IMG/VR virus record: IMGVR_UViG_3300037780_000050
Location: 19,899 to 83,898 of that record
Source: a virus
Lineage: Duplodnaviria > Caudoviricetes
Length of the DNA stretch: 64,000 nt
Direction: 5' to 3' (one strand)
In this document: one piece after another, positions 33,365 through 58,201 of the stretch
Layout of the letters: each line of letters starts with the position of its first letter
Numbering within the stretch: position 1 is the stretch's first letter
Position numbers and translations under genes: made by a program
Notes under the pieces: model-generated
Told to the model about the DNA's origin: nothing
Databases searched by the model: none
Seen by the model: the letters and a program-made list of their open reading frames with translations, nothing else

Positions 33365-33967
33365 GTGACAACCAAGACCGAAGCTGACTGGGTTTCCCGC
33401 CCAGCGACTCTGGACTCTATGTATCGGCTTTACCGGCCACGTATCGAGGCCATTTGCGCCAACATGGGAATCATCAACGTGGAGGACGCCGCCAGTGAGA
33501 TCCTGTGTCGCTTCATCGAGCGTGGGTTCATGGAGAAGTTCGACCCCGACTACGTGACCGTGGCCGACGGGCGCTACTACCCGGCGCGCTTCTCCACTTT
33601 CATCTGTGCGTTCGCCGAGCGCTACGCCCGAGGTATCCGTGACCGGGAGCGTCGCTCCAGCAAACGGGAGCATCTCAAGGACGAGCTGATCGATACCGAA
33701 TCCTTCGAGACTCCCGACCAGTGCTGGAGCGACGAGCTGATCGCCACCGTGAAGGACATGCAGGCACGAGTCGCCGAGCTGCCCAAGGTCGGGCGCCGCG
33801 ACTTGGAGCCCTTCTTTGCTGCGCTGCTGGCGCAGGTGCTGGAGGGGCGCAGTGAGATCGACCGCAACATCGTGGCCCGGGAGCTGTCCATCAGCGTGTC
33901 GACAGTCGGGAACTGGATCTACATGGTGCGCGAGGAGATCGAGCCGTGGGCCGACCGGCTGCGGTGA
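33365..33967 (+). CDS. ECF-like sigma factor or sigma-4 HTH regulator
   Basis: VEDAASEI and RFSTFI (region 2-like); IVARELSISVSTVGNWI (region 4 HTH). Confidence 0.6.
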   Translation: MTTKTEADWVSRPATLDSMYRLYRPRIEAICANMGIINVEDAASEILCRFIERGFMEKFDPDYVTVADGRYYPARFSTFICAFAERYARGIRDRERRSSKREHLKDELIDTESFETPDQCWSDELIATVKDMQARVAELPKVGRRDLEPFFAALLAQVLEGRSEIDRNIVARELSISVSTVGNWIYMVREEIEPWADRLR

Positions 33968-34749
33968 TCGGCGCCGAGGCGCAGTGGGACGCGGTGCTCG
34001 CCGCCGATCCCCATGCGCTGGCGCTGCTGTCCAATCCCGACGCCAGGATCGGTGCCCGGGGCTTCGCTCAGGCGTGGGCGCGACATCTTCGGGTGCCCCC
34101 AGCATTCGTGTGTAGCTACGAGGGTGTGACCATGGACGACGCCCGCGCCGCGGTGCTCGACATCATCCGCAGACCGCCCCGTTTGGTCGTGCTGGAGTTC
34201 GGCGAGGACAGCGCTCGCCAGCAGAACGCCGTGCTCAAGGCCATCGAGGACCCTGGGCGCGCCCGTGTGGTGGTGATCGGTTCGAGGGCGACGCTGCTGC
34301 CCACCGTGTTGAGCCGATGCATGGTGGTGACGTTGGGGTTGCTGGGACCGCAAGATCTCGAGCGAGCGCTGCGCGCCCAGGGCATGGACCCTGATCGAGC
34401 GAAGGACGTGGCCATCAAGGTGGGAGTGGGAAGCGTGGAGGACGCGCATCGGGTGCTGGGAGGGTCTCCAGCGGTGTCTGCGGTCGCCAACGTGGCCCGA
34501 GCGCTGGCCCAGAAGGACCGTCGGTTGCTGGAGTCCAGCATCGATCACTGGGACGAGGACAAGCACCGGCTGTTCATGCGCTGGCTCGTGGCCAGCGCCG
34601 CAGGTCGTCCGCTGCGAGAGGTGGGGTCGTGGCAGATTCCCAGAGCCCAGGCACTGCCGATGTGGCGGGAGCTGTGCGACTACAGCGGTGCTCGCCCAGA
34701 GCTGGCCATGGCTGTCGCAGTGGCGTCGATCTCAGAGAATCTGGTATGA
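33964..34749 (+). CDS. holB: DNA polymerase III delta-prime-like clamp loader subunit
   Basis: QQNAVLKAIEDP and LLPTVLSRC (SRC motif); degenerate Walker A. Confidence 0.7.
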   Translation: MIGAEAQWDAVLAADPHALALLSNPDARIGARGFAQAWARHLRVPPAFVCSYEGVTMDDARAAVLDIIRRPPRLVVLEFGEDSARQQNAVLKAIEDPGRARVVVIGSRATLLPTVLSRCMVVTLGLLGPQDLERALRAQGMDPDRAKDVAIKVGVGSVEDAHRVLGGSPAVSAVANVARALAQKDRRLLESSIDHWDEDKHRLFMRWLVASAAGRPLREVGSWQIPRAQALPMWRELCDYSGARPELAMAVAVASISENLV

Positions 34750-34967
34750 CCGTCGGCTGGGCGGTAGCTCTTGTGTGGGCGATCGGCGCCGCGGTCTCGT
34801 TCCGGCCGGTGTGTCGAGCGGTGTGGAAGGAGATGGGTCCGTTGGTCGAGGTCGACAGCAAGGTCGACATGACCCTGATGGGTCTGCTCATCGCCACGTT
34901 CGCGTTGATGTGGCCGCTCATGCTCTTGCTGTGGGCGGTGGGGTCGTTGTCGAGAGAGGACCAGTGA
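34746..34967 (+). CDS. small membrane protein
   Basis: Two TM segments; ATGA-coupled. Confidence 0.55.
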   Translation: MTVGWAVALVWAIGAAVSFRPVCRAVWKEMGPLVEVDSKVDMTLMGLLIATFALMWPLMLLLWAVGSLSREDQ

Positions 34968-35131
34968 TGGATGAAGACGAGTTCGCCACCCAGTTGTTCT
35001 GTCCGGTGTGCTGCTCCACGGTGGATGTGGACAGGCCCGGCCGACACGAGCTGGTCTGTGTGAGTTGCGGCACGCACTTCGAGGTCGATGTCGACCCCGA
35101 GATCGTGGCCGAACACAGTCTGGTGGGGTGA
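34967..35131 (+). CDS. small Zn-ribbon protein
   Basis: CPVC and CVSC; TGATG coupling. Confidence 0.55.
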   Translation: MDEDEFATQLFCPVCCSTVDVDRPGRHELVCVSCGTHFEVDVDPEIVAEHSLVG

Positions 35132-35132
35132 G

Positions 35133-36035
35133 GTGGCGACGTTCATCCAGCACATCCGCCGTCGCTATGAGCGGGCGCCGCGGCGGTTGACGTGGGTGTG
35201 CGGTTCCGATGAGTGGTTGCGTTTGGAGGTCGTGAAGGATCTGGTTGAGCGTTACGCCCAGAACCGGGCGTGGTACGACATCAGTTCGGCGAATGGGATC
35301 AGAGACTTCTGGGCGAGCGCCTTCCAGTACGGGATCGATGACGAGCCCCGCGTCATCGTTGGTACCCGTGCTCACAAGGTGAGTGATTGGGACAAGCTGG
35401 AGCTGTGGGCGTCAGAGATGCGCACCATGCCCAAGCTGTATCTGATCTTCGACAGCGACGATCACAAGATCGAGTCCGACAAGGACCACGTGGCCATGAT
35501 CCGCGACAAGGGTGACGTGATCCGTTGCGCTCCACCCAAGGAGGCCGACACCTTCGAGTGGCTCTCGACAGAGTTCGACACCATGAGCGCGACGGTGATC
35601 AACGCTGTGATCGATCGCACCATGAACGATCCACGCCGCAGCTATCAGCTCTGCGACAAGTTGGCCATGTTCGGCAACGCCCGTCCCGAGCACGTGGCGT
35701 TGCTGGGGGAGGAGTTCGTCGCCGGAGACTTCGTGGACTACGTGGTGCTGGGGGACAAGAAGCGGGCGATGGCTCTGGTCGAGACCATCGAGCCCCGCCA
35801 GGTGCTGGGGTTGTTCGTAGCGAGGTTGCGCCAGATGCAGGAGATGCACCGAGCGTTCCGCACGAACACCCACGCCAACGTCCCGGTGTTCGTGGAGCGC
35901 CGCTTCGAGAAGGTGGCAGGTCGGTACAACCAGGCCAAGGTGGCTCACGCCCGCAGGCTGTTGGCCGCTGCGGACGAGGCCACGAAACGAGGCCCCGCCG
36001 TGGGTGCCTTGGAGATGTTGGTGAGGAGTTGGTGA
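35133..36035 (+). CDS. holA: DNA polymerase III delta-like clamp loader subunit
   Basis: WVCGSDEWLRLEVV resembles the YLxxGxExxL start of delta; ~300 aa; FVDYVVLGDKKRAM lid/collar pattern. Confidence 0.55.
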   Translation: MATFIQHIRRRYERAPRRLTWVCGSDEWLRLEVVKDLVERYAQNRAWYDISSANGIRDFWASAFQYGIDDEPRVIVGTRAHKVSDWDKLELWASEMRTMPKLYLIFDSDDHKIESDKDHVAMIRDKGDVIRCAPPKEADTFEWLSTEFDTMSATVINAVIDRTMNDPRRSYQLCDKLAMFGNARPEHVALLGEEFVAGDFVDYVVLGDKKRAMALVETIEPRQVLGLFVARLRQMQEMHRAFRTNTHANVPVFVERRFEKVAGRYNQAKVAHARRLLAAADEATKRGPAVGALEMLVRSW

Positions 36036-36415
36036 TGGAAGCGAACACGTGGCGTGTCTACGCGCAGGAGTGGGTGGTCGGCACCACCACCAAGAGCGCT
36101 GAGGTGTGTCGGGAGTATCTGGAGAACAAGTACGTGCTGGCCGACGGCCGCGCTCGGCTGCCTTCGACGTGCATCCGGGTGGTGGCGCATCCGCTGGTGC
36201 CCGACCTTTGGCAGGGAGAGATCTGCGTGTGGGTGCTTCGTGGGGAGTTCAAGCGCTACGACGCCGCCAAGCAGTACGTGAGCGAGTTGGTGGTCGAGTC
36301 GCTGGCCAAGGACGGGGGCGTGGATGACATCCACTTGGTCGAGCGCGGCAGCAGAGCCGAGGCCCGTCTGCGAGACTTCGGTGTGAAGGTGCTGCATCAG
36401 GAGGAGTCGGTGTGA
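36035..36415 (+). CDS. hypothetical protein
   Basis: TGATG-coupled, 126 aa. Confidence 0.55.
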   Translation: MEANTWRVYAQEWVVGTTTKSAEVCREYLENKYVLADGRARLPSTCIRVVAHPLVPDLWQGEICVWVLRGEFKRYDAAKQYVSELVVESLAKDGGVDDIHLVERGSRAEARLRDFGVKVLHQEESV

Positions 36416-36645
36416 CCAAGCCCACCCCACGCCACTGGAGTGCGGTGGCGCGCTGTCCCCGCTGCGGTCAGCTCGTGCGCAAGGAGACCGCCACCAAGAT
36501 CGGCAAGCGGTTCTACGGACCGGAGTGCGCGCAGCTCGTGCTCGCCAACATCACCAACCTGCGGGTGGTCGACGGTGAGGTCACCGAGGCTGAGTCCAAG
36601 ACGCATCGCTACATGCGACGCCGGGTGAAGGAGCGAGAGACATGA
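36412..36645 (+). CDS. small Zn-finger protein
   Basis: CPRC and GPEC. Confidence 0.55.
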   Translation: MTKPTPRHWSAVARCPRCGQLVRKETATKIGKRFYGPECAQLVLANITNLRVVDGEVTEAESKTHRYMRRRVKERET

Positions 36646-39020
36646 AGCTGACCCAGCGAGTGACCGACATCGATCAGCTCCGGGAGCACATGGACAAGAT
36701 CTGTTCCGAGGGCATCGTGTTCGGGTTCGACATCGAGACCGGCTACGACGGCGATGATCGGGACAAGGCCGCTACCACTCCCGAGTTGATGAAGGTCGTG
36801 GGGATCTCCTACGCCATGAACACCGACGAGGGCTTCTACGTGCCTCTGGCGCACGACTTGGAGCGCAACGAGGACTTGGCCACCGTGGCCGAGGTCATGA
36901 AGCCCGCACTGCAATCTGGTCTGGGTGTGGCTCACAACGCCAAGTTCGAGATCCGGTGCTTGGCCCAACCCCAGCCCCGAGGGTTCGGCTACCACTGCCG
37001 CGTGTTCAGCGACACCCAGATCGAGGCGTACGTGTTGCAGGAGTGGCAGAGCTTCGCGTTGAAGTCGCTGGTGTACGACGTGTTCGCCTACGAGCAGGCC
37101 ACCTACGCCAGCCTGTTCCCGGGGGCCAAGCCCGCCGAGCTTCGCAGGAGCAGGTTCAACCATCTTCCTGTCTCCCCGGCCGTGATTTCCTATGCGGTGG
37201 ACGACAGCATCTGGTGCCTCGCACTACACCTTCGCCACCACCCTCTGGTCGCCGACACCGCGGTGTACAAGCTGGAGATGCAGGTACTCGATGTGGTCGT
37301 GGCGATGGAGGAGGTCGGTCTCTACTACGACTGGGACTACTTGCGCGCCGGGGCCGAGGGGTGTTTGGAGTTCATCGACCAGCTCGAAATCGAACTGGTG
37401 GACGAGTTGAGCGAGATGGTCTTCGGTGTGGGCATGGAGGGTGGTGTGGATGGCGTCCCCAGCCGTATTGAGGTCAACCTGGCCAGCCCCGCCCAACTCT
37501 CCGACGTGCTGTACAACAAGCTGGGCCTGCCCGTGACGATGCGGTCCAAGAAGACCGACAAGCCGAGCACCAGTGCCGACGCGCTGACCCCGTTGGCCAA
37601 GGACTACCCAGCGGTGCAGAAGATTCTGTGGTGGAAGGAGTTGAAGAAGCTCCACGGCACGTACCTCAACAAGTACGAGCGGGCGTACTCCGGCGCAGCA
37701 GACGGTCGCACCCATCCCAACACCATGCAGGCGGTGGTGGTGAGTGGCCGCTTCGCGGTGAGTGATCCTCCCTACCAGCAGACCCCGAAGAAGTACCGCT
37801 ACGAGTTGGACTCAGGCGCGCATTGGGAGTTCGAGTTCCGCCCATCGATCCGCCCCCAGGAGGGCAACTACTTCCTGTACTTCGACTACAGCCAGGTCGA
37901 GCTACGGGTGGTGGCCGGGCTGGCCAAGGAGCAGGCGTTGATCGATGCGTTCGCCAGCGGCACCGACGTGCACCGGGTGACCGCGAGCCTGATGCTCAAT
38001 GTCCCCTTCGATGAGGTCACCGGGGATCAGCGCGACATCGGCAAGACCATGAACTTCGCTCTGGTCTACGGCATGAGCACCAAGATGCTGGCTCAGCGGC
38101 TGGCGGTCACCCAGGAGCGTGCCGAGGAGCTGTACCAGGCGTACTTCGACACCTACGGGTCGATCAAGGTGTGGCGCCAGCGGGTGATCGAGGAGGCCAG
38201 CGCCAAGGGCTACACCGTGAGCTGGCTGGGGCGCAAGCACAAGATCTGGGAGTTCGAGTCCAACGACCGGTGGGTGTTCGAGAAGGGTGAGCGCTTGGCA
38301 GGCAATGCCCCGGTGCAGGGCGGTGCTGCCGACTACATGAAGGTGGCCATGGTCCGTCAGCACAAGAAGCTGGCAGAAGCTGGTCTGCTGGCAGACGTGC
38401 GGCTGGTCGCCAACGTGCACGACTCCCTCACGTGGGAGGTCACCGACGCCATCGACCCCTTCGACATGATGCGGCTGCTCAATCCTGCGGTCAGCTTCCC
38501 GCTGCCGGGGTTCCCACCGATCACCGCGGACTGGGCCGTCGGGTTGGATTGGGGCAACCTCCACGAGATCAGTCTGGTGGAGGCCGAGGAGCACGTGGCC
38601 GAGCGGTGGTCGGTGTACGACATCATCAACGACATCCCCCAAACACTCTCTCCAGAGCCTCTCCCTGCTCCTGAGAGCCCCGCTGTGGTCTCCGAGCCCC
38701 TGCCATTCCAGCCCGACCCCGCCGCCCAGTACGACGAGCCCAGCGAGGGCTCTGAGTCCTTGGGAACAAAGCGCATGGTGGTGACGCTCCAGGCGATGCC
38801 GACCAAGGCCCAGTGGTCGTCGTTCACCGAGTGGCTGGCCACCAACGCAGGCGAGTGCGAGGTGCACGTGGTCACCCCGAAAGGCAGTGTCGATTTGCCC
38901 CAACGTGTGAGCGAGCGGGCCAACACCGCGTCGGTGATCCACTTCGGCAACACGGGTCGTGTGGAGTGGGAGGTCTTCGAGGACACGAAAGATCTGTTGG
39001 TGTCGGGGCTGGGGCTGTAG
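36642..39020 (+). CDS. polA: family A DNA polymerase with 3'-5' exonuclease and extra C-terminal domain
   Basis: GFDIETG (ExoI), AHNAKFE, FDYSQVELR (motif A), GKTMNFALVYG (B), VHDSL (C). Confidence 0.92.
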   Translation: MKLTQRVTDIDQLREHMDKICSEGIVFGFDIETGYDGDDRDKAATTPELMKVVGISYAMNTDEGFYVPLAHDLERNEDLATVAEVMKPALQSGLGVAHNAKFEIRCLAQPQPRGFGYHCRVFSDTQIEAYVLQEWQSFALKSLVYDVFAYEQATYASLFPGAKPAELRRSRFNHLPVSPAVISYAVDDSIWCLALHLRHHPLVADTAVYKLEMQVLDVVVAMEEVGLYYDWDYLRAGAEGCLEFIDQLEIELVDELSEMVFGVGMEGGVDGVPSRIEVNLASPAQLSDVLYNKLGLPVTMRSKKTDKPSTSADALTPLAKDYPAVQKILWWKELKKLHGTYLNKYERAYSGAADGRTHPNTMQAVVVSGRFAVSDPPYQQTPKKYRYELDSGAHWEFEFRPSIRPQEGNYFLYFDYSQVELRVVAGLAKEQALIDAFASGTDVHRVTASLMLNVPFDEVTGDQRDIGKTMNFALVYGMSTKMLAQRLAVTQERAEELYQAYFDTYGSIKVWRQRVIEEASAKGYTVSWLGRKHKIWEFESNDRWVFEKGERLAGNAPVQGGAADYMKVAMVRQHKKLAEAGLLADVRLVANVHDSLTWEVTDAIDPFDMMRLLNPAVSFPLPGFPPITADWAVGLDWGNLHEISLVEAEEHVAERWSVYDIINDIPQTLSPEPLPAPESPAVVSEPLPFQPDPAAQYDEPSEGSESLGTKRMVVTLQAMPTKAQWSSFTEWLATNAGECEVHVVTPKGSVDLPQRVSERANTASVIHFGNTGRVEWEVFEDTKDLLVSGLGL

Positions 39021-39027
39021 CAGAGTC

Positions 39028-39339
39028 ATGAAGTTCAGACAGGCGATCACAGAGGAGAGGGCCAACGGGGTCTGGTTGAAGTACCACGTCGAGTTGGAGG
39101 AGCCCGACATCGAGTCGAGCGCCGCCGAGATGGGTCTGCCCTACGCAGAGCTGTCGACGTTGGAGCGGTTCAACTTCGCCCGGTTGCTGTGCGCCACGCT
39201 GCTCTACAGCGCCATGGTGGCCGATCATCCGTTGGCCGAGCCCGAGCTGATCGAGGCGCGCAGCCGGTTCACCGAGTACCGGGACCATCTCCGCACCAAG
39301 CACCCGCTGGAGACCGAGGACGTGTGGGGTGACACATGA
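39028..39339 (+). CDS. hypothetical protein
   Basis: 103 aa, directly after the polymerase. Confidence 0.55.
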   Translation: MKFRQAITEERANGVWLKYHVELEEPDIESSAAEMGLPYAELSTLERFNFARLLCATLLYSAMVADHPLAEPELIEARSRFTEYRDHLRTKHPLETEDVWGDT

Positions 39340-39572
39340 GCGACGAGCTGTGCATCCACGACATGGATCCGCTCACGTGCTCGTTGTGCAAGCCGAAGGG
39401 CAAGACGCGTCAGATGCGGGACTACCGGGCAGCGCGCCGAGCGGTGCACGCCAAGGAGTTCCAGGCCCAGTACGACGGGACGTGTGGCGAGTGTGGCGAT
39501 GCGATCTCGACGGGTGAGCGCATCGTGCACACCGATGAGGGCGGCTACAGCCACGCCCGGTGCATGTTGTGA
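39336..39572 (+). CDS. small Zn-binding protein
   Basis: CIHD, CSLC, CGEC and HARC. Confidence 0.6.
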   Translation: MSDELCIHDMDPLTCSLCKPKGKTRQMRDYRAARRAVHAKEFQAQYDGTCGECGDAISTGERIVHTDEGGYSHARCML

Positions 39573-40045
39573 GTACGTCTGATCGATTGGGTGAGATCAT
39601 CACCCAGGCGCAGGTGTGTCGAGCAGAGATCACCAAGCTGTACCCGGCCAAGGGCGCGACCCCGGGTGAGGTGGTCGAGAGCTTGCAGGCGATCCGCCCG
39701 TGGCTCGATGAGTTGGAGACGTTGGTGGTGGCGCTACGCCGCTATCGCAGCGTGAGCGAGCGTGCTCTGGCCACCGCCAAGTCCGCAGCCGAGGACCGTT
39801 GGGACCAGGCTGCACGAGGTAAGGGCGGCAGCGTGCGTGATGCTGGTCCGCGAGAGCGCTACGCACACTTCAATTTGGAGAGCTTTGAGGAGCGTCGCAC
39901 CCAGCGTGAGGCCGAGGCGCTGCACTCCGAGACCACCGCAGCGTTCGATGCTGTGCAGGCCATGTTCCGAGGGGCCGAGAGCATTCGACATGATCTGCAC
40001 GTGCTGATCCGGGCCGCGCAGTTCGAGAGCAGTCTGGAAAGATGA
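39569..40045 (+). CDS. helical coiled-coil protein, possibly a recombination mediator
   Basis: All-helical, 158 aa, near SSB and RecA; function is inference only. Confidence 0.45.
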   Translation: MSTSDRLGEIITQAQVCRAEITKLYPAKGATPGEVVESLQAIRPWLDELETLVVALRRYRSVSERALATAKSAAEDRWDQAARGKGGSVRDAGPRERYAHFNLESFEERRTQREAEALHSETTAAFDAVQAMFRGAESIRHDLHVLIRAAQFESSLER

Positions 40046-40560
40046 GAGAGATGACGAGGAACGCGATCAGCTTCGACTTGGATTCCACCCTGGCCGACAC
40101 CCGCCAGCGCCAGTGGATGGTCCCGATGATCCGTGGCGAGGCCCCCAACCCCGAGGGCTACACGTGGACCGACTACTCCATGCTCTGTGAGCACGACGAG
40201 ACCATCGACGGTGTGTGCACGCTGCTGCGGGGGCTGTACTTCGGTGGGTACTACATCTTGATCAACACCGGTCGCTCTGCCGCGGCCGAGGATTTGACCA
40301 GGGGTTGGCTCAACCGCCACTTCGTGCCGTACAACCATCTGGCCATGCGGCCGGTCGGTGACCACCGCCCCAACGCCGAGCACAAGATCGAGTCCATCAT
40401 CCACTTCGAGGTCAACCACTCAGCCAAGGTGATTCTGCACGTGGATGATTGGGCCGAGGCCGCAGAGGAGGTGGGTCGGCAGTTGAAGATTCCCACGGTG
40501 GTCATCCCTGGCCCCTTCGTCAAGCCCGAGCCCGCTGCGTGGGATCAGGAGAAGGGCTGA
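40042..40560 (+). CDS. HAD-family phosphatase (PNKP phosphatase-like)
   Basis: FDLDSTLAD, INTGRS, MRPVGDHRP, HK and HVDD. Confidence 0.85.
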   Translation: MREMTRNAISFDLDSTLADTRQRQWMVPMIRGEAPNPEGYTWTDYSMLCEHDETIDGVCTLLRGLYFGGYYILINTGRSAAAEDLTRGWLNRHFVPYNHLAMRPVGDHRPNAEHKIESIIHFEVNHSAKVILHVDDWAEAAEEVGRQLKIPTVVIPGPFVKPEPAAWDQEKG

Positions 40561-40964: not shown

Positions 40965-41025
40965 TAGAATCGACAAGCTCCCCGCAACCAGCCGGTTGGG
41001 GACCACAGAGAAAGCGACCAAGCCC

Positions 41026-42027
41026 ATGCCATTGGCGAAGTTCACCCGCGAGAACACCCAGTCAGGACCGGAGATCCCCCGGCTCAAGCTGGAGAAGGAC
41101 GAGAAGGCCCGGGTGGTCATTCTCGATGAGGGTCCCCAGTACCGGTGGTATCACCGGCTGGAGAAGATCGCTCTGCTGGGCCAGCGCCCGAAGATGGTGA
41201 CGCGAGAGCGCCGCAACGGTGAGACCTACGAGGTCTACGACACCGACTTCGTGGGCACTCCGGCATGTACCGGTGACCCCGAGGTGCTGGAGCAGCGCGG
41301 CGTCGACCCCGACAACTGCGTGATCTGCGCAGCGAGCCGCAAGTACCCCGACGCGATCGAGGAACCCAAGCGCCGCTTCGCCATGAACGTGTTCAAGTAC
41401 CAGACCAAGCCGGGCAGCTCCGAGTTGCAGGTTCCCTTCGGTGGGACACTGCTGGTGTGGTCGTTCACCGAGAAGCGGTTCAGCGTGCTGGTCGACATCG
41501 CCGAGGAGTTCGGCGATCTCCGAACCACCGACTTGGTGCTGGGTCCGTGCTCCAACGCCCAGTTCCAGAACTTCGAGATCCACGGCAGCCCGAAGGCCGC
41601 GTGGATGTCCAACGACGAGACCAAGGCGTACACCGCCAGCGTGTACAAGGAGAACAAGTTCTCCGACGCCGAGCTGATGGACTTGTGCGCCAAGGTCCGC
41701 GAGGAGCGCTACGTCAAGGAAGATCTGGAGATGATCATCGAGCGCTGGGAGCACGTGGCCCGCTGGGAGGCGGGCGACGCTCAGGTCAGCGCCTCGGCCG
41801 CAGCTCCGGCCGAGAAGATCGATGTCGCCGATGCGCTCAGCGATCTGTTCAACTCCAGCGACTCGCCGACCGAGGCAGATACCGAGGTCAAGACCGAGCC
41901 GATCTCTCGCCCCACGACGTCGGTCACCGACGACTTGGACGCTCTGCTGGAGGCTCCCACCGAGGCACCGGCCGAGCCCAAGGAGGAGATCAGCGGCATT
42001 ACCGACTTGGATGATCTGCTCAAGTGA
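41026..42027 (+). CDS. gp32-like single-stranded DNA-binding protein
   Basis: RLKLEKDEKARVV, Cys cluster CxxxxCVIC, RFAMNV, acidic tail ending DLDDLLK. Confidence 0.7.
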   Translation: MPLAKFTRENTQSGPEIPRLKLEKDEKARVVILDEGPQYRWYHRLEKIALLGQRPKMVTRERRNGETYEVYDTDFVGTPACTGDPEVLEQRGVDPDNCVICAASRKYPDAIEEPKRRFAMNVFKYQTKPGSSELQVPFGGTLLVWSFTEKRFSVLVDIAEEFGDLRTTDLVLGPCSNAQFQNFEIHGSPKAAWMSNDETKAYTASVYKENKFSDAELMDLCAKVREERYVKEDLEMIIERWEHVARWEAGDAQVSASAAAPAEKIDVADALSDLFNSSDSPTEADTEVKTEPISRPTTSVTDDLDALLEAPTEAPAEPKEEISGITDLDDLLK

Positions 42028-42398: not shown

Positions 42399-42506
42399 AG
42401 CGGGGCAGTATCATCATCAGTGAGAGGGATGGTCAGTCCAATTCTCAACGCATGGCCCGTCTGGTGACCCCAGGCGGGCCGTGTACGTTCTTGAAGGAGT
42501 GTGTGC

Positions 42507-43787: not shown

Positions 43788-45008
43788 ATGACCGACATCA
43801 CGATCGATCAGATGCGAGACCGGTTGCTCACCATCGAGCAGCTCCACACCGAGTTGGCAGCCACCGAGCCGCTCAGCGAGATGGAGTTCGAGACGGGCGA
43901 GCAGATCCGCTTCGAGCTGGGCGAGGGTGCGCTCACCCAGGCCCAGAACATCGCCGACACCGAGCCCGTCAACGCGGTGGCCCACATCAACGGCACCGTG
44001 TTCCCGCTGTCCAAGGAGGCGCTGCTGGAGGCCACCAGCAAGTGCGGCATCCCCAAGGGATACGCACAGCGGACCCCCGAGGGACTCATCGAGACCCACC
44101 TCAACTACTGGTTTCAGGAGGGGCTCCGGGTCGGCAGCAACGGCAAGCCCAAGCAGCACAAGGCGCTCGCCGCGGGCACCGATCAGCTCATCGTGGGCTT
44201 CACCGGAGGACAGATCCGCCCGTTCAGCAACCTCCAGTTGCTCGACATCGCAGTGGATCGAGCTGCCAACTACTACGGCGCCCGCGTGGATGATCTGCTG
44301 GTCGACTACAAGCGCCAGCACAGCCTGCGTCTCACCGAGTTCCGGGTGATCGTCCCCGACTACACCCGCAAGATCGTCTCCGGCCGCGACACCGCCGCCC
44401 GAGAGGATTCGTGGAGTGCAGGTCTACAGGTCCGCAACTCCCTCACGGGCGAGGACTCCACCAGCTTGGACGGCTACCTGTTCGCATGGTGGTGCACCAA
44501 CGGCTGCACGAACACCTACGCCACGTCGGGACGCTGGAGCCGCCGTGGCGGTGGCGGCAACGACACCAACGAGGTGTACGACTGGGCTGCCCAGTCGGTC
44601 GACCAGATCTTCGCCGAGCTGGAGACGAGCTTCGATGAGGTGCAGTCGCTGACCCAGGTCCCGATCCGGGGCGATGTGGTCGGTGCGCTGGGCAACATCT
44701 ACGAGCGCTACGGCATCCCGAGCGTGCTGCGGGATCGCATCACCGAGGCCATGGTGGAGTCGGACGATCTCACCATGTACGGGATCATGAACGCCATCAC
44801 CAGCGTGGCCAACGACGGTGTGTCCGCACGCCAGGCCACCACGCTGATGGAGGCCGCTGGCGAGCTGCCTCGGGTGTACGGCAACGCCCGGGTCGCGTTC
44901 GAGGCCGTGGAGACCGGCCACTTGGATCTCCAGGGTGACGTGGACATCACGCTGCCCGACGGGCAGACCGTTCGCACTCGGGTGACGAAGATCCCCGCCA
45001 GCGACTGA
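43788..45008 (+). CDS. DUF932-like protein
   Basis: GLQVRNSLTG and WWCTNG motif. Confidence 0.65.
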   Translation: MTDITIDQMRDRLLTIEQLHTELAATEPLSEMEFETGEQIRFELGEGALTQAQNIADTEPVNAVAHINGTVFPLSKEALLEATSKCGIPKGYAQRTPEGLIETHLNYWFQEGLRVGSNGKPKQHKALAAGTDQLIVGFTGGQIRPFSNLQLLDIAVDRAANYYGARVDDLLVDYKRQHSLRLTEFRVIVPDYTRKIVSGRDTAAREDSWSAGLQVRNSLTGEDSTSLDGYLFAWWCTNGCTNTYATSGRWSRRGGGGNDTNEVYDWAAQSVDQIFAELETSFDEVQSLTQVPIRGDVVGALGNIYERYGIPSVLRDRITEAMVESDDLTMYGIMNAITSVANDGVSARQATTLMEAAGELPRVYGNARVAFEAVETGHLDLQGDVDITLPDGQTVRTRVTKIPASD

Positions 45009-46078: not shown

Positions 46079-46364
46079 TCTGATAAAGGAGTTTCCGTTG
46101 GCCAGAGATCTGAGAGCACTGTCCCTACCGGACCAGTCCGCAGCGTTGCAGGTGATGGGCTCACCGGTCCCCATCAGGACCATCAACAAGAGCGACATCA
46201 CCGGAGTGCGAATGCAGGCGCTGGCGATCGCTTCGGCAGGCGGGGCGCTCTGGGGCAGCGGTATGGCGTTGGATGACATCTTCGCCGACGCCGAGCGCAT
46301 CGTGCAGTGGGCACTGCGCCCAGCCACACCGGAGGAGGAAGCTGCGGCCAATGGCTCTCGTTGA
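46062..46364 (+). CDS. hypothetical protein
   Basis: Overlaps both neighbours; ~100 aa. Confidence 0.45.
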   Translation: MAMQADLIKEFPLARDLRALSLPDQSAALQVMGSPVPIRTINKSDITGVRMQALAIASAGGALWGSGMALDDIFADAERIVQWALRPATPEEEAAANGSR

Positions 46365-46788
46365 TACGAGTTGGATGCAATACGGGTTGTGCACAAGCAC
46401 CAACATGACCGAGACGTTCTTCCCCGAGGGGCCGACGTCTGACGGTGATTCGTGGAGTGACCGACGCAAGCCGCCACACCCCGGGTACTTGGCCGAGGCG
46501 TACCGTGTGGCGCGACAGCTTTGTTCTCAGTGCCCGGTACAGCCCGAGTGTTTGCAGAGTGCGCTCGATCGAGGTGAGGTCGACCACGGGATATGGGGCG
46601 GGTACAGCCCGCGAGACCGTCGCAGGCTGCGGGCTGGGGTCACTCCCAAGGCTCCGCTGGCAGGGTGTTGCACCCAGTGTGGGTGGCGTGAGTGTCGCTG
46701 TAGTGATGTATCTGGTGTGATCAGCTTCGAGTCGGTATCACACAGAGGGGCGAGACGCCGCCGCCGAGACTTCCGAAGGACGGGATAG
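46351..46788 (+). CDS. whiB: WhiB-family Fe-S transcription factor
   Basis: WMQYGLC, TFFP, ARQLCSQCPVQPECL, GIWGG and basic tail. Confidence 0.92.
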   Translation: MALVDTSWMQYGLCTSTNMTETFFPEGPTSDGDSWSDRRKPPHPGYLAEAYRVARQLCSQCPVQPECLQSALDRGEVDHGIWGGYSPRDRRRLRAGVTPKAPLAGCCTQCGWRECRCSDVSGVISFESVSHRGARRRRRDFRRTG

Positions 46789-47698: not shown

Positions 47699-47708
47699 AG
47701 AGGTCCCC

Positions 47709-50245: not shown

Positions 50246-50478
50246 GCGACGACATCACCCAGCGCATCCAGCTCGCCAAGGAGCGGCTGGAGACCGCGCA
50301 GCGCAGCGTGATCGAGCACAACACCCAGCTCAGGTTGGCCACCGAGGAGCTGGAGCGGGTCACCGCCGAGATGCAGGAGAAGTTCGGCGTGGCCACGCTG
50401 GACGAGGCCCGAGAAAAGCTGGCGCAGATCGACGCCAAGATCATCGAGAAGCTCGATGAGTTGACCAAGGAGTTGTGA
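50242..50478 (+). CDS. 78-aa coiled-coil protein, possible Rad50 coiled-coil fragment
   Basis: Pure heptad repeat; ATGA-coupled. Confidence 0.6.
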   Translation: MSDDITQRIQLAKERLETAQRSVIEHNTQLRLATEELERVTAEMQEKFGVATLDEAREKLAQIDAKIIEKLDELTKEL

Positions 50479-51596: not shown

Positions 51597-52234
51597 GCGT
51601 TGCCCGCGCCCGGGAGGTGTACCAGCAGCTCTATTCCAAGATGTCGAGTGCTCAGGGCCAGAAGGAGATGCTGGAGGCCCAGTTGGCCAACGGCACCGCA
51701 GCGCTGGAGCGTGCCACCGAGGATCAGCGCATCAACGCCGAGGCTCAGATGTTGCTGAGCGCGGTGGCCACCGAGCGCCAGGGCCAGTTCCGCCAGAGTC
51801 TGGAGACGTTGGTGACCCATGGTCTCCAGACCGTGTTCGGTGACGAGTCGCTGCACTTCCACATCGTGGAGGAGGTCAAGGCCGGACGCCCCCAGGTGTC
51901 CTTCGAGGTCGAGAGCACCATGGGCGACGAGACGGTGCGCACCAGCGTGATGGATGCCAGGGGAGGTGGGTTGGCGAGCGTGGTGGGGTTCTTCATCAGG
52001 TTGAGCGTGCTGCTGCTCAGCGGGCACCGTCGCATCATGCTGCTCGATGAGACCTTCGCTCAGCTCAGCGCCGGGTACGAGCCGCAGATGGCCGAGTGGT
52101 TGGCCGACCTGTGTGTGCGAGCTGAGGTGCAGATCGTGATGGTGACCCACAGCGATGCCTACAGCGAGCACGCTGATGTGGTGTACCGAACGAGTCAGTC
52201 GGGGGGAGTGACCAGTGTCGAGCGGGTCCGGTAG
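51593..52234 (+). CDS. Rad50/SbcC-like ABC ATPase, C-terminal half
   Basis: Coiled coil, ARGGG signature, IMLLDET (Walker B), VTHS (H-loop). Confidence 0.85.
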   Translation: MSVARAREVYQQLYSKMSSAQGQKEMLEAQLANGTAALERATEDQRINAEAQMLLSAVATERQGQFRQSLETLVTHGLQTVFGDESLHFHIVEEVKAGRPQVSFEVESTMGDETVRTSVMDARGGGLASVVGFFIRLSVLLLSGHRRIMLLDETFAQLSAGYEPQMAEWLADLCVRAEVQIVMVTHSDAYSEHADVVYRTSQSGGVTSVERVR

Positions 52235-52823
52235 CAAGGTCTGCTCGCGCTGCGGCGAGGAGCGCCCGCTCACCCAGTTCGGGCAGAGTCACTACACCAA
52301 GCCGAGGAAGCGGACCTACCACCACCGGGTGTGTGTGGTCTGCAAAGACGAGATCTCCGAGCGTAAGGCCACGAAGGAGGAGCTTCGCACGCTGCGTGCG
52401 TTTGGCATCGTCCCCGACCGGGAGCGGGTGGATGGGCCATCGAGTACCGAGCGTCAGCCCGGGGAGAGCTTCACCAAGGAGTGTTCGGAGTGCCGCGAGG
52501 TCAAGGCCGTGCAGGAGTTCGCGTGGCGCAACAAGGCCGAGAGATCCCGCCGTCCCAGGTGTCGTCAGTGCGAGCAGCAGGCCCGCAGGAGGCGTCGGGA
52601 GCGTCTTGGTGATGATGAGTACCGCCGCCAGAATCGAGAGGCTCAGAGGCGTCACAGGTCAGAGAAGTGGCGTGCGAAGGACCATGAGGCTGCCAGGGTG
52701 CAGCGTCGTGCCCATGCTCGCGCATCAGCGGAGTTGAGAGAGCGCCACCGTGAGGAGTTCGACCGGCTGTACGCGCAGGCCAAGGAACTAGAATCAGCGT
52801 TGGCAGATGAGGAGATCGAGTGA
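52215..52823 (+). CDS. double Zn-finger basic protein
   Basis: CSRC with CVVC and CSEC with CRQC; Arg-rich tail; no HNH core seen. Confidence 0.55.
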   Translation: MSSGSGSKVCSRCGEERPLTQFGQSHYTKPRKRTYHHRVCVVCKDEISERKATKEELRTLRAFGIVPDRERVDGPSSTERQPGESFTKECSECREVKAVQEFAWRNKAERSRRPRCRQCEQQARRRRRERLGDDEYRRQNREAQRRHRSEKWRAKDHEAARVQRRAHARASAELRERHREEFDRLYAQAKELESALADEEIE

Positions 52824-55771
52824 AGCACCGCACCCCGCGCCAGATCCAGAAGTTCTTGGATGAGAATCTCTACCGGTTCGATCTCCCGAGCCAGTATTAC
52901 GGCGACGAGCCCAACGCCTACGGCAAGGAGTGGGCCGACGGTCAGGCCCGATGGTTGATCGCTGCGTCGTGGCCATACGAGCAGGCCGCGGGCAATCAGT
53001 CCATCCCCGCGGTCTACAAGCAGATCAACGATGCCGAGCGAGGGCTCGCCGACCGGTGGTATCTGCCCAACACCCCGAGAGACATGGGGTTCTTCGAGAA
53101 GTCGGACATCCCCATCTTCGGCATCGAGTCCAAGCGCCAGGCCAGCGACTTCGACATCGTGGCCACATCGATCAGCTACCCCGTGCTGATCATCTCGTTC
53201 GTCAAGCAGTTGCTGATGAGCGGTATCCCTGCCGACCGCAAGGTCCGGGCCGAGAGCCCCGAGGCGTGGCCGATGGTCATCATCGGCGGGCAGGCGTATG
53301 GCGCTCCGGGTCCGCTGGAGCCGATCGCGGATGCGATCTGGTGTGGTGAGGTGGAGGAGGAGCCGGGCAATCCCGGCATCCAGACCTTCACCGAGCGGGT
53401 GGCCCAGTTCAAGGCCGTTGGTGTGTGGGACACCGAGCGCAGTCGGTGCTACTACGAGTTGGCCCGAGAGTTCCCCTTCGTCGTGTTCCCCGAGCACACC
53501 GACGTGCACTACGGGTACGAGGACCGGAGTCATGTGGGGTTGGACGAGCCCAGCTTGCAGGTCCAGAGCTACACCATCAACCGATCTGGTCTGAGGGCGC
53601 CGTTCGTCAAGCGGTTCGTCAAGGACATGGACTCCATCGCCCCGCTCGACAACCCACCGCTGCTCTACGCAGATCCAGGGATGGGTGCAGGAGACTTGGA
53701 GGTGGGTCGAGGGTGTCCCGCGTGGTGCTCGTTCTGCGCACTCACGTACCGGCAGAAGCCCTACCGCCAGCGCAGCGTGGGTTACATGACCGACTTCGCG
53801 CAGCGGGTCAAGAACAACCAGGGCGCCACGAGGCTGGTGCCGTTCATGCCCGACTTCCCCATGCACACTCAGCGCCGCGGGCTGATCGCATCGCTGATGG
53901 AGAACGTGAGTGATGAGGTTGATGGCGGGGCCATGCGGGTGGACGACTTCATTGCCGACAACAACTACATCTTGTTGCAGGTCCAGGGCGGTATGGATGC
54001 TCTGACATTGGGCTTGGAGGGCAACAGTCAGCGGATGCGGGATTTCGTGGGCAAGGGTTGCTCCGATGCCGACATCGAGGAGGCGGTGGTTCGAGGCATC
54101 AGCGCAGGCATCACCAAGTTCAAGTTCTTCATGATCTCGAATATGCCGGGCGAGGATGAGGGCGACGTGTTCCGCATCCTGGCGCTGGCCAAGAAGCTCA
54201 GCGACATTCGTGAGCGCATGGGCAAGCCCAAGGTCCAGTTCCAGTTCTCGTGGACTCCGATGTTGATCGAGGCCAACACTCCGTTCCAGTGGTTCGCTCC
54301 CGCCACCAACACCCGGGCGCTGACCGACGTGTGGGAGGAGTTCAGAGATCTCAATGTGCAGTTCAAGCTGGGGGGCAAGAGCGAGTCCAACAAGGCCACG
54401 TTCTTCCAGCTTTGTCAGCGTGTGGGGAGGCTAGGGGGTGAGGCCATCCTGGCGGTGTGCGAGGCCATTGCAGCCAACCCAGGAGGTGCTTGCTGGGGAG
54501 GGGTGCCTCGCAAGCGCATCAAGGGCTACGAGATTCCCGAGCGTCCGGGTGAGCCGGTCAACACCGAGCAGGCGTTGGAGTACGAGCTGCGCAAGCGAGG
54601 GTTCCGCAACGGGTTCGGTGACTGCTTCGATGAGCGCTTCAAGGATGATCTGTTCGGATGGGAGCACATCGATCAGGGCATCCACCCCGAGCTGTTGTGG
54701 CGCACGTACGTGCAGATGCGGGAGTTCTTGGAGCAGACCGACAGCCACACCTACGATCAGCAGTTCACCGACGAGGGCTACCGCGGCAACGAGTGGATCG
54801 AGCGCTGCGACACCAAGTGTTACGGCAAGACGTGCGGGACGTGTGATGCCGACGACTTGAAGATCCGGCGCAACTACATCATCGCTGCCCAGAGCGAGGA
54901 CAAGAGGGATCTTCACGAGATCGTGAGCTTGGACGAGCGGTCCAAGGCCGTGAAGGTCCGTGCCCGGCTGCACAAGAGCGAGGATCGCAGGTTCATCACC
55001 AACGACCACTGGCGGTTCCATGTTCGCCGAGCCGCATACCTGGCGCTGCAAGATCTTGAAGTCACCGACTTCACGATCACCAAGCGGTCGATCCGCTTTG
55101 CCAGCGATGGGTTGGAGTACCGGGACTGGACGTGCGGTGTGGACTACGTGGAGTTCGCGTTCACCAGGGCTCTGGGCCGCAAGCGCATCGCTGTGATCAT
55201 GGAGGCCATGAATCGTCACATGCGGGGCATTCAGCTCGACACTGAGGCGTGGAGCGTGTATCCGCCCACGAGTGCCAGTCTGCGCAGTGATGTGGATCTG
55301 AGCTTGTGGAGTGTGCCGCTGCGTGACGAGCCGGGCGTGGTTCTCAGGGCTATCGAGGCGTGGCATTCCAGCGACTACGTGAAGATGATCATGCTCAAGG
55401 AGCAGACGTTCTTCGAGAGCGGTCACAGCGTGGTCAATGCCAAGGACTACTGCGAGGACGTGTGGTTGGCCCGAGATGGAACTGATCTGGTCGTCAAGAT
55501 GATGATCCGAGGCAAGGCCAGCCCCTACGCCGTGCTCGCTGCGTTGTTGGGCAAGAGTTCGTGGATCGAGGCCGCGTCGCTGCCCGCGCGGCGGTTGGAG
55601 TCGTTCTTGGAGTGGGACGAGGACCAGACCGACTTCTTCCGCCCCAGCAGCGTGGTGAGCGGGTCTTCCATCCCCGTGAATCCTCTGGATCAGCCGTTCC
55701 ACCCCGAGTACACCCCGAAGGAGCTGGACGAGGCCCAGGGGTATCTGGTGTCATCGCTGGCGTTCCGGTAG
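52820..55771 (+). CDS. large radical SAM protein (TIGR03960-like) fused to a TIGR03936/DUF2344-like domain
   Basis: PSQYYGDEPN, FGIESKRQASDFDIV, IIGG, EVGRGCPAWCSFC (CxxxCxxC), RVDD, EGNSQRMR; C-terminal KVRARLHK and RFI. Confidence 0.85.
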   Translation: MKHRTPRQIQKFLDENLYRFDLPSQYYGDEPNAYGKEWADGQARWLIAASWPYEQAAGNQSIPAVYKQINDAERGLADRWYLPNTPRDMGFFEKSDIPIFGIESKRQASDFDIVATSISYPVLIISFVKQLLMSGIPADRKVRAESPEAWPMVIIGGQAYGAPGPLEPIADAIWCGEVEEEPGNPGIQTFTERVAQFKAVGVWDTERSRCYYELAREFPFVVFPEHTDVHYGYEDRSHVGLDEPSLQVQSYTINRSGLRAPFVKRFVKDMDSIAPLDNPPLLYADPGMGAGDLEVGRGCPAWCSFCALTYRQKPYRQRSVGYMTDFAQRVKNNQGATRLVPFMPDFPMHTQRRGLIASLMENVSDEVDGGAMRVDDFIADNNYILLQVQGGMDALTLGLEGNSQRMRDFVGKGCSDADIEEAVVRGISAGITKFKFFMISNMPGEDEGDVFRILALAKKLSDIRERMGKPKVQFQFSWTPMLIEANTPFQWFAPATNTRALTDVWEEFRDLNVQFKLGGKSESNKATFFQLCQRVGRLGGEAILAVCEAIAANPGGACWGGVPRKRIKGYEIPERPGEPVNTEQALEYELRKRGFRNGFGDCFDERFKDDLFGWEHIDQGIHPELLWRTYVQMREFLEQTDSHTYDQQFTDEGYRGNEWIERCDTKCYGKTCGTCDADDLKIRRNYIIAAQSEDKRDLHEIVSLDERSKAVKVRARLHKSEDRRFITNDHWRFHVRRAAYLALQDLEVTDFTITKRSIRFASDGLEYRDWTCGVDYVEFAFTRALGRKRIAVIMEAMNRHMRGIQLDTEAWSVYPPTSASLRSDVDLSLWSVPLRDEPGVVLRAIEAWHSSDYVKMIMLKEQTFFESGHSVVNAKDYCEDVWLARDGTDLVVKMMIRGKASPYAVLAALLGKSSWIEAASLPARRLESFLEWDEDQTDFFRPSSVVSGSSIPVNPLDQPFHPEYTPKELDEAQGYLVSSLAFR

Positions 55772-55787
55772 AGAGCATGATGGTGAG

Positions 55788-56006
55788 ATGCTCGATCCCA
55801 AGAGGCGTTCTCCGAATCACCCGGAGCTTGTCCAAGACGACGATGGGAACTGGTGGGAGGTCATCTCAGATGATGGGGGTGGTCTCACTACGTTGGAGGC
55901 AATCGCGGCCTACTTGGTAGGCGTGGCTGTTGTCGTTGGTTCGTCGTTGTACGTGTGGGCCATGGTCCGAGGTTTACGTGGTCTGGTGAGGATGGTGTTG
56001 AATTGA
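55788..56006 (+). CDS. small membrane protein
   Basis: C-terminal TM helix. Confidence 0.5.
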   Translation: MLDPKRRSPNHPELVQDDDGNWWEVISDDGGGLTTLEAIAAYLVGVAVVVGSSLYVWAMVRGLRGLVRMVLN

Positions 56007-56815
56007 TCAGGGCAGAGGTAGTGGCAGACAGCATCACTTCGGATGGGTCGAGGCTGACCACTGTGGTGGGGACGTGCCACCGGTTCGTGCTGGCCGAGCT
56101 GAACACTCATCGGGTGTTCAGTCGCAACAGCGCCAGCAGTCGAGCCATCCCAACCCACAAGCGCATCGCGCAGGTGCTGGACGATCCGGCGATCCCCATC
56201 GAGTTCGGCTCCAATCAGGCCGGAATGCAGGCCGGTGCTCCCATCGAGGACGAGGACAAGGCCCGCAACGAGTGGCTCCGGGCGCGTGATGCCGCGGTCG
56301 AGCACGCTTCGGCGTTGTTGGAGATGGGCGTCCACAAGCAGGTCGTCAACCGGGTGCTGGAGCCATTCATGTGGCACACCGTGGTGATCAGCAGCACCTA
56401 CTGGGAGAACTTCTTCGACCAGCGATGCAGCCCGCTGGCTCAGCCTGAGATCCGTGCGTTCGCCGAGGTTGTGCGGGGCGCCATCGAAGGCAGTGAGCCG
56501 GATTGGCTCACCCCGGGCGAGTGGCATCTTCCATTCACGCGAGATTCCACCTATGCGGACACGTATGAGCAGATCAGGGTGTCGGTGGCGCGTTGCGCTC
56601 GCACGAGCTACGAGACGCACGATGGCGAGATCGACGTAGCGAAAGATCTGGAGCTGTACCAGAAGCTGGTGAATGCCCGACCTATGCACGCCAGCCCATT
56701 GGAGCATGTGGCGTGCGTCTTGGTTGAGCCGCTGGGTACGAGCAATTTCTACCCCAGGTGGGAGCAGTGGCGGTCGACGGTGGAGAAGAACCGAGGGTTG
56801 GAGACGCGTCGATGA
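56003..56815 (+). CDS. thyX: FAD-dependent thymidylate synthase
   Basis: VADSI, RLTT, HRFVLAELNTHRVFSRNSASSRAIP and HASPLEH; start uncertain (TTG 56003). Confidence 0.85.
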   Translation: MIRAEVVADSITSDGSRLTTVVGTCHRFVLAELNTHRVFSRNSASSRAIPTHKRIAQVLDDPAIPIEFGSNQAGMQAGAPIEDEDKARNEWLRARDAAVEHASALLEMGVHKQVVNRVLEPFMWHTVVISSTYWENFFDQRCSPLAQPEIRAFAEVVRGAIEGSEPDWLTPGEWHLPFTRDSTYADTYEQIRVSVARCARTSYETHDGEIDVAKDLELYQKLVNARPMHASPLEHVACVLVEPLGTSNFYPRWEQWRSTVEKNRGLETRR

Positions 56816-57045
56816 GTCTCGTCGTTCTGTGTCCCGACCCCGAGTGTGGTGGGGAGTGCGAGGTCGAGCAGGATGGTGACCACCGGTACTTCGAGTGCAT
56901 CGAGTGCGGCTACAGCTTCGGCTACGAGCGCCAGTTGCAAGATCTGACCACCGACACGTGCGCTATCGGTGTTCCCATCGAGATCCGACAGCGTGCCATG
57001 GGTGAGCCGACGTCTGTGCCGGTGACGCTCACCAAGAAGGGGTAG
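56812..57045 (+). CDS. small Zn-ribbon protein
   Basis: CPDPEC and CIEC. Confidence 0.6.
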   Translation: MSLVVLCPDPECGGECEVEQDGDHRYFECIECGYSFGYERQLQDLTTDTCAIGVPIEIRQRAMGEPTSVPVTLTKKG

Positions 57046-57049
57046 GGGC

Positions 57050-58201
57050 ATGAGCTTGGCCATCAAGTACCGTCCCCGAAGTTTCCAAGCTACGAGCGGT
57101 CAGAAGCCCGTGAGGGTGGTGCTGCGCCAGATGGTGCGCACCATGCAGGTGCCCAACGCTCTGTTGTTCACCGGGAGCAGGGGCACGGGCAAGACGACCA
57201 CGGCGCGGGTGCTGGCCGCAGCGCTCAACGCTTCGCTCGATGGCGATGTGGATCCAGAGTCTGCTGTGGCGCAATCGATCTTGGACGGGCGCAGCACCGA
57301 TGTGATCGAGCTGGACGCTGCCAGCAACGGTGGCGTGGACAGTGTGCGGGAGATCAGGGAGCTGGTCCAGTACGAGCCCCAGGGGTGGCGTGTGGTGATT
57401 CTGGACGAGGCCCACTCCATGACCCGGGAGGCGTTCAACGCACTGCTCAAGACGCTGGAGGAGCCGCCACCGAGGACCGTGTTCGTGTTGGTGACCACCG
57501 AGCCGCAGCGCATCATCGAGACCGTTCGCAGCAGGTGCATGGAGTTCGTGTTCACGAGGTTGAGCGTGGCCGACATCGTGGCCCGGCTGCGGGAGGTGGC
57601 TGACGCCGAGGAGATGCAGATCAGCGACGAGCTGCTGCACCACTTGGCTGGTCTGGTGCAGGGTGCCATGCGTGATGCACTGATGCTGCTCGATCAGTGT
57701 CGGGTGGTCGGCATCGAGACCGTGGAGGCGTGGCAGGAGTTCAGCGGTGAGGCCGATGTGGCTCCGAAGATCTTGTTGGCGTGCGTCCGAGGGGATATGG
57801 CGGGTGCGTTCAGCGCGGTGAGCGAGGCACTGCAATCGACGGGAGACGTAACTGGTCTGGTGGATGCGATCATCGCAACGCTGCGCGACGTGACGCTGCT
57901 CCAGGCAGACATCGCAATCACAGCCACAGGGCAGGGGTTCATCGACCGTCAGGCGCTGGCCACCATGATCGAGCCCATGAGGCTGCCGATGGCGTTCAGG
58001 GTGCTGTGGGGGCTTCGTAGTGGTCTCCGACTAGGGTCGGGGCGTCGTGAGGATGTCGAGCTGTGTGCCGCGGTGCTGAGCGATGTGCTGTGCCTACAGA
58101 AGCCCCAACCAACGCCACCGCCACACTCCAATGTGTTGCCGTGCTCGACATCTGCCGATGATGAAGAAGTGACTCTGGACGACATGAGGAGCATGACATG
58201 A
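57050..58201 (+). CDS. dnaX: DNA polymerase III gamma/tau-like clamp loader ATPase (domains I-III)
   Basis: LAIKYRPRSF, GSRGTGKTTTAR, ELDAASNGGVD, ILDEAHSM, AFNALLKTLEEPP and TVRSRC. Confidence 0.93.
   Translation: MSLAIKYRPRSFQATSGQKPVRVVLRQMVRTMQVPNALLFTGSRGTGKTTTARVLAAALNASLDGDVDPESAVAQSILDGRSTDVIELDAASNGGVDSVREIRELVQYEPQGWRVVILDEAHSMTREAFNALLKTLEEPPPRTVFVLVTTEPQRIIETVRSRCMEFVFTRLSVADIVARLREVADAEEMQISDELLHHLAGLVQGAMRDALMLLDQCRVVGIETVEAWQEFSGEADVAPKILLACVRGDMAGAFSAVSEALQSTGDVTGLVDAIIATLRDVTLLQADIAITATGQGFIDRQALATMIEPMRLPMAFRVLWGLRSGLRLGSGRREDVELCAAVLSDVLCLQKPQPTPPPHSNVLPCSTSADDEEVTLDDMRSMT

Follow-up and report, generated by a model that had tools for sequence, protein, structure and literature searches.

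An actinophage genome encodes a bacterial-type sliding clamp and a three-subunit clamp loader together with a family A DNA polymerase

We analysed a 64,000-nt stretch of phage DNA (hereafter, the window), which corresponds to bases 19899-83898 of the 83,898-bp IMG/VR record IMGVR_UViG_3300037780_000050. The window encodes a beta sliding clamp (DnaN), a gamma-like DnaX, a delta-like (HolA-like) and a delta-prime-like (HolB-like) clamp-loader subunit, and a family A DNA polymerase (PolA). We propose that PolA is probably the client of the clamp in a self-contained phage replication module. A sequence-only reading of the window had pointed out the four clamp and loader genes, and all four are real open reading frames (ORFs) on the + strand. 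It had also treated their pairing with PolA as unusual. This was overstated: Streptococcus phage Dp-1 shows the same pairing, and phages Ma-LMM01 and RSL1 were discussed in this respect in 2011 (PMC3201878). Thus, the arrangement is a new actinophage lineage of a known phage design, which Dp-1 already shows. What is new is the strong divergence of the delta family, a C-terminal extension of PolA and a conserved tail of DnaX.

Both ends of the 83,898-bp record carry a 127-bp repeat. Because the ends are repeated, the phage genome is very probably complete. The CheckV completeness figure for the record is 62%, which appears to reflect larger relatives of approximately 130 kb. The initial 19.9 kb of the record, which precede the window, contain ORFs of head and packaging size. 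The G+C content is approximately 64%. A WhiB gene is located at 46273-46788 of the window, and the closest isolate infects Microbacterium. Therefore, the host is an actinobacterium. All coordinates given below for this phage are those of the window, and the replication genes described all lie on the + strand.

The clamp gene (50475/50478-51596) encodes a protein of 373 aa. Three tandem beta-clamp domains (PF00712, PF02767 and PF02768) cover its whole length. The protein matches TIGR00663 (E = 2.7e-37; 128.6 bits, slightly under the cut-off of 137.65) and phrog_947 (E = 6e-44), and its residues 2-344 match solved beta clamps (E = 1e-20). The calculated isoelectric point (pI) is 4.65. Acidic pI values have been tied to ring clamps that require a loader (PMC3201878, Kazlauskas and Venclovas 2011), and the value of this DnaN falls in the range reported there for such clamps.

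DnaX (57050-58201, 383 aa) matches TIGR02397 with 273.9 bits, which exceeds the curated cut-off of 250. Walker A (GSRGTGKTT), Walker B (ILDEAH), the SRC motif (in RSRC) and the sensor-2 arginine (in MRDAL) can be read in its translation. Beyond the collar, there is only a proline-rich linker and a short tail, approximately 40 aa in all. The tau domains IV-V, the binding sites for DnaB and the Pol III alpha subunit, are therefore absent as judged from the profile and the translation, and the sequence-only reading was right on this point. From these features, DnaX is gamma-like, and it is predicted to act as the motor ATPase of the loader.

The delta-like protein (300 aa) is encoded at 35133-36035, in an ORF open from 35088. 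Positions 36-312 of the protein align with positions 3-313 of the 316 in TIGR01128 (holA) with E = 8e-15, under the curated cut-off. No match for the protein was found in Pfam or PHROGs. The holA model also matches the DnaX of another phage. Because of this cross-hit, independent evidence for delta was sought. A profile from four close homologues matched 296 of 1.84 billion cluster representatives (E up to 0.001); among the matches listed, these were approximately 220-360 residues long. Close homologues of the delta and delta-prime proteins are confined to a few metagenome contigs. The proteins matched by the profile constitute a distinct, mostly uncultured delta family. An AlphaFold2 model of the delta-like protein, built from a 120-sequence family alignment, has a mean predicted local distance difference test score (pLDDT) of 95.6 and a predicted template modelling (TM) score of 0.83. 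In a Foldseek search with this model, the best eight PDB matches were all delta chains from E. coli or B. subtilis (including 8giy_A, 1jr3_D and 3zh9), and delta chains outranked gamma, T4 gp44 and RFC chains. The family profile matched B. subtilis delta (E = 1e-20) and E. coli delta (E = 2e-9) over the full length, and the next match had an E value of 0.1. By the TIGR01128 profile, the fold and the family profile, the HolA call of the sequence-only reading was confirmed by hidden Markov model (HMM) and structure: the delta-like protein is a true delta homologue with the three-domain fold and no ATP motifs. In E. coli delta, the wrench that binds the clamp pocket consists of L73-F74, where helix 4 ends. 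In the profile alignment, the wrench position is M-S-L-F in E. coli, F-P-F-M in B. subtilis, Q-Y-P in the family and Q-Y-G in this phage: there is an aromatic residue, but the motif is different. Delta is the predicted clamp-opening wrench, and its contact with the clamp is plausible.

The delta-prime-like protein (261 aa) is encoded at 33964-34749; the start at 33964 is the choice of the gene caller, and the ORF is open from 33946. The protein matches PF13177 with 27.2 bits, and its best NCBIfam matches are delta-prime models, down to E = 1e-10. It possesses no GK[ST] P-loop, and its Walker B motif is degenerate (VLEFGE). In contrast to the lost P-loop, S117-R118-C119 is invariant in four homologues. 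The defining pattern of delta-prime is that it does not bind ATP, yet supplies an arginine finger to the first DnaX. Because the P-loop is lost and SRC is invariant, the delta-prime call holds, and the protein is predicted to be an ATPase-dead AAA+ subunit with an SRC arginine finger. An SRC motif without a P-loop is what an ATP site at the delta-prime/gamma interface requires. The genome contains exactly two PF13177 genes, namely those of DnaX and of the delta-prime-like protein.

If both calls were wrong, the two proteins would be unrelated ATPases and the loader would be incomplete. Both proteins score under the curated NCBIfam cut-offs, the delta-like protein lacks Pfam and PHROG matches, the holA model cross-hits DnaX, and the homologues in Microbacterium phage Magritte (OR553905, 133 kb) are annotated just as "ASCE ATPase". 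However, the delta fold and the profile evidence are specific to delta, and the delta-prime-like protein has the defining motif pattern. Moreover, among the matches listed for the delta-prime model in Foldseek, nearly all were clamp-loader subunits, although delta-prime and gamma were not separated. We regard the misassignment as largely refuted and very improbable; for HolB, as for HolA, the earlier call stands, here by the delta-prime NCBIfam models together with the motifs.

PolA (36642-39020, 792 aa) matches PF00476 (E = 1e-87) and PF01612, the 3'-5' exonuclease. The Exo motifs and Pol motifs A, B and C are readable in the translation. Like replicative PolAs, the protein carries the 3'-5' exonuclease domain without a 5' nuclease domain. 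In a six-frame search of the complete genome, PolA was the sole PF00476 match, and no DnaE (PF07733), PHP, PolB, Y-family or PrimPol gene was found; control genomes were positive for each polymerase family searched. The sequence-only reading had named family A as the only polymerase in the window. This is correct and extends to the whole genome: no dnaE gene lies elsewhere between the terminal repeats.

We then surveyed related viral records. IMG/VR searches by DnaN or by a four-sequence delta alignment gave no close relatives. The 120-sequence delta alignment was too diverse as a search pattern; a 22-sequence subfamily was used and gave 12 IMG/VR records. These records and phage Magritte together make 13 viral records that share the delta family; most delta-family contigs are under 17 kb. 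PolA is present in all 13 records, and a delta-prime-like gene is present approximately 1 kb from delta in 12. DnaN was found in eight, namely all those with a completeness of 72% or more. Full-length DnaX was found in seven, namely all five IMG/VR records at least 90% complete, record G011 and Magritte. DnaE was found in one record only (G006). Thus, in the co-occurrence survey that the sequence-only reading had suggested, the clamp and loader set is conserved with PolA in the delta-family records. On two relative contigs (86 kb and 37 kb), the genes are arranged as here, with DnaB followed by delta-prime, delta, PolA and RecA. Among 50,697 GenBank phage records, Magritte is the single isolate with the delta family (tblastn with P0017, a more typical member of the family). 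When the delta of the phage studied here and the C-terminal domain of its PolA were used as tblastn queries against the same 50,697 records, no match was obtained.

PolA ends in a C-terminal extension (38709-39020), which consists of a proline-rich linker, an alpha/beta domain of approximately 90 aa and a tail ending in DLLVSGLGL. In all 15 PolAs of delta-family phages, 176-243 residues follow motif C, as compared with approximately 80 in Streptomyces phage KimJongPhill. The DNA of KimJongPhill matched a short stretch of PolA; because the 28 kb around its own PolA gene contain no annotated clamp or loader gene, KimJongPhill is not a relative in this respect. The tails share a pattern in which two or three aliphatic or aromatic residues follow acidic ones. 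For example, the tails in other phages are DVFAGLAL, SMLGGLEL and TLLDGITL. Within alignment A4, the tail residues D95 and L97 show no variation. The hydrophobic tail is missing in only one of the 15 PolAs, that of G006, which also has DnaE. We consider the terminal tail a candidate clamp-docking peptide, and the extension as a whole appears to be a lineage-specific feature, newly described here.

We also considered whether the extension is a DnaE-like C-terminal domain placed on PolA. Five sequence or profile tests and a structure search of the Atlas gave no support for this idea. A word-indexed homologue search with PolA residues 695-792 matched only PolA itself. The domain had no PDB match by profile and no Pfam match at E up to 10. 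Comparison with the C-terminus of a phage DnaE gave no BLASTP support and an hhalign probability of 0.13%, and the Atlas search returned only generic alpha/beta folds (TM score approximately 0.5). As a separate observation on the polymerase, PolA of the closest relative (37-kb contig, L004:11495-14851) has 1,118 aa and shows Hom_end and LAGLIDADG matches between the two halves of the polymerase domain. This PolA probably contains an intein.

The main alternative is that the phage clamp and loader recruit the family C polymerase of the host (DnaE1), and that PolA acts just in gap filling or repair. Pol III is the usual partner of the beta clamp and gamma complex, and the pocket of the phage DnaN is partly conserved (TDGVRC, as compared with TDGHRL in E. 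coli). Furthermore, G006 (129 kb) encodes a DnaE-like polymerase of 1,233 aa with a canonical QFDLF motif, beside PolA, DnaN, DnaX, delta and delta-prime (L042, G006:C1:97000-103500, ORF 1153-4851). Because this record has DnaE with QFDLF in addition to PolA, use of the clamp by a family C enzyme is possible within the clade. This possibility counts against PolA as the client, as do three further points: the clamp partner is not readable from the DnaN pocket, the PolA tail is not the canonical QL[SD]LF clamp motif, and the AlphaFold2 model of delta-prime is only moderate (pLDDT 73). In contrast, 12 of the 13 records lack DnaE, as does this complete genome. DnaX lacks the tau domains that bind alpha and DnaB. 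PolA has proofreading activity motifs, and it lacks the 5' nuclease needed for Pol I-type maturation. Moreover, the C-terminal extension is specific to PolA and present in 15 of the 15 phages examined. On this balance, we judge recruitment of host DnaE1 to be unlikely.

A second alternative is that the main clients of the clamp are non-replicative, for example nucleases of recombination or repair, and that the clamp might also couple late transcription to replication as in the cases of T4 gp45 and the host clamp in phage Mu. The window does encode its own sigma factor, RecA, an Mre11-like nuclease and a PD-(D/E)XK nuclease, and late transcription of phage Mu uses the beta clamp (PMC12867686). 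However, among the + strand ORFs of the genome, none besides PolA ends in the tail pattern or in a QLxLF-like motif, and the C-terminus of the sigma factor has neither. In addition, such a role would add to a replicative role and not replace it. A clamp devoted mainly to these clients seems to us quite improbable.

We return to PolA as the probable client of the clamp, and propose the following mechanism. A pentameric loader, bacterial in type and encoded by the phage, would put DnaN onto primed DNA. In this loader, there are probably three copies of the gamma-like DnaX ATPase and single copies of delta as the wrench and delta-prime as the stator; we infer this 3:1:1 composition. The loaded DnaN would tether the proofreading family A polymerase of the phage, which would act as the replicase. 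PolA may dock on the clamp by the conserved hydrophobic tail that closes its lineage-specific extension. DnaB, the primase-like protein and the SSB-like (single-stranded DNA-binding protein-like) protein, which are described below, would complete the fork. Thus, the self-contained hybrid replisome of the sequence-only reading holds at the level of gene content, and stimulation of PolA by the clamp is still an inferred part of it. To our knowledge, no phage replisome that pairs a family A polymerase with a clamp of the bacterial type and a loader with all three kinds of subunit has been reconstituted.

DnaX also ends in a conserved peptide. In eight phages, DnaX terminates in [RK]-[LM]-[ST]-[LI]-x-[DE]-[ML]-x(3-4), preceded by a linker rich in proline and alanine (58007-58198 in the window; L036-L041 and L043 in the relatives). 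This terminal peptide appears to be a lineage-specific feature and is newly described here. As judged from its residues, the peptide loosely resembles a clamp-binding motif. It is conceivable, if rather unlikely, that the DnaX peptide binds the C-terminal domain of PolA, so that the loader would keep up to three PolA molecules at the fork while the PolA tail docks on the clamp. If this is true, an equivalent of the tau-alpha tether would have evolved independently and in minimal form, with a family A polymerase as its basis. The two short conserved peptides, the PolA tail and the DnaX tail, are candidate contacts that hold the machine together.

The closest precedent in design is Streptococcus phage Dp-1 (NC_015274, 56.5 kb), which encodes DnaN (gp10), DnaX (gp17), a delta-prime-like protein (gp18), delta (gp19) and DnaB. 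RefSeq names the adjacent gp17-19 "clamp loader of DNA polymerase". In our scans, gp18 matched TIGR00678 (E = 1.5e-13), and gp19 matched TIGR01128 with 88.5 bits, over the cut-off. PolA is the only family A or C polymerase of Dp-1; DnaE was not found. Thus, this genome and Dp-1 both have DnaN, DnaX, delta-prime, delta and PolA, and lack DnaE. From the RefSeq genes and these scans, a cultured phage already provides a documented case of the full set alongside PolA. The two phages differ in several respects. Dp-1 has a Firmicute host, and its loader genes are contiguous, whereas those of this phage are dispersed. Furthermore, Dp-1 delta passes the bacterial holA cut-off, whereas the delta family here is much more diverged.

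For Ma-LMM01 and RSL1, PolA together with beta and gamma homologues was reported in 2011, and the authors suggested PolA as the client of the clamp and asked what the remaining loader is composed of (PMC3201878, Kazlauskas and Venclovas). The same paper cites the stimulation of E. coli Pol I by beta. Our holA and PF13177 scans of Ma-LMM01 and RSL1 found nothing past gamma. Those genomes are larger than 150 kb and show gamma only; in contrast, delta and delta-prime are both recognisable in the 84-kb genome studied here. At the sequence level, the lineage offers one answer to the question posed in 2011, in that delta and delta-prime are both phage-encoded.

Microbacterium phage Magritte is syntenic with this phage in DnaB, primase, delta-prime-like gp62, delta-like gp67, PolA gp69, SSB gp72 and RecA. 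It also has DnaX (gp4) and DnaN (gp247), and shares the C-terminal extension of PolA. In contrast, its genome is 50 kb larger and has many tRNAs, the identities are 26-42%, and its delta-prime has SRG instead of SRC. The Magritte genes for DnaX, the delta-prime-like protein, the delta-like protein and DnaN (genes 4, 62, 67 and 247) are all annotated as "ASCE ATPase". Because the clamp is not an ATPase, this label is an annotation error in the case of DnaN. Magritte is a cultured and harmless model of the lineage, with these four genes now mis-annotated. The value of the present analysis is therefore a tractable example and an annotation fix, as the design itself is not new.

With the E. coli gamma complex (gamma3-delta-delta-prime) and beta, the phage set shares the three subunit types, the logic of ATPase and arginine finger, and the three-domain clamp. 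In contrast to E. coli, the phage lacks Pol III alpha, its DnaX has neither tau domains IV-V nor the cysteines of the Zn module, and the clamp presumably serves a family A polymerase. The T4 system (gp43, gp45 and gp44-gp62) likewise consists of a phage-encoded polymerase, a ring clamp and an ATP-driven loader, and T4 polymerase docks on its clamp via a C-terminal peptide. However, the T4 polymerase belongs to family B, the T4 clamp is a PCNA-like trimer, and the T4 loader is RFC-like, with a fifth subunit that is taxon-specific.

Other genes of the window have putative replication functions. A DnaB-type replicative helicase is encoded at 26146-27684 (PF03796, E = 7e-22) and is syntenic in the relatives L001 and L004 and in Magritte. 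The gene at 30526-30984 is a homologue of Magritte gp59 (tblastn, 32% identity, E = 2e-13); the primase-like assignment follows the annotation of gp59 as "DNA primase" and has no Pfam support. The SSB-like protein (40996-42027) has a cysteine-rich motif and an acidic C-terminal tail, and is related to the annotated SSB of Magritte, gp72 (36% identity, E = 1e-68). No Pfam, PHROG or PDB sequence match was found for it, and no gp32 HMM match. Thus, of the DnaB and gp32-like SSB listed in the sequence-only reading, DnaB is borne out by PF03796 and the SSB-like character by gp72, whereas the likeness to gp32 is not. The tail of the protein is acidic and amphipathic (ending in DLDDLL), as is that of gp72 (ending in FDDLL), and recalls the partner-binding tails of bacterial SSBs.

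A 406-aa protein is encoded at 43788-45008, adjoining RecA. It shows a faint similarity to the ORC/Cdc6 lid (E = 0.003-0.01) and matches phrog_1362, the function of which is unknown. Magritte (gp76, 34% identity), L001 and L004 all have a counterpart of this protein, which could act as an initiator or as a helicase loader. Between dnaN and dnaX, a gene for a 983-aa radical SAM protein with Radical_SAM_N2 and Radical_SAM domains (52820-55771) adjoins a ThyX-like gene (55955-56815). Some relatives carry further genes within or upstream of the replication modules. In L008, a protein with an Acb2/Tad1-hairpin, a counter-defence-like domain, is encoded between delta-prime and delta (L008:1159-1392). 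In L004, an AcrVA2-like protein, also with a counter-defence-like domain, follows DnaB (L004:2762-3769). Finally, the relative L010 carries both delta-prime and delta and, upstream, genes for Ku and an ATP-dependent DNA ligase (1041-1877 and 3621-4853), and the latter two would be an end-joining pair.

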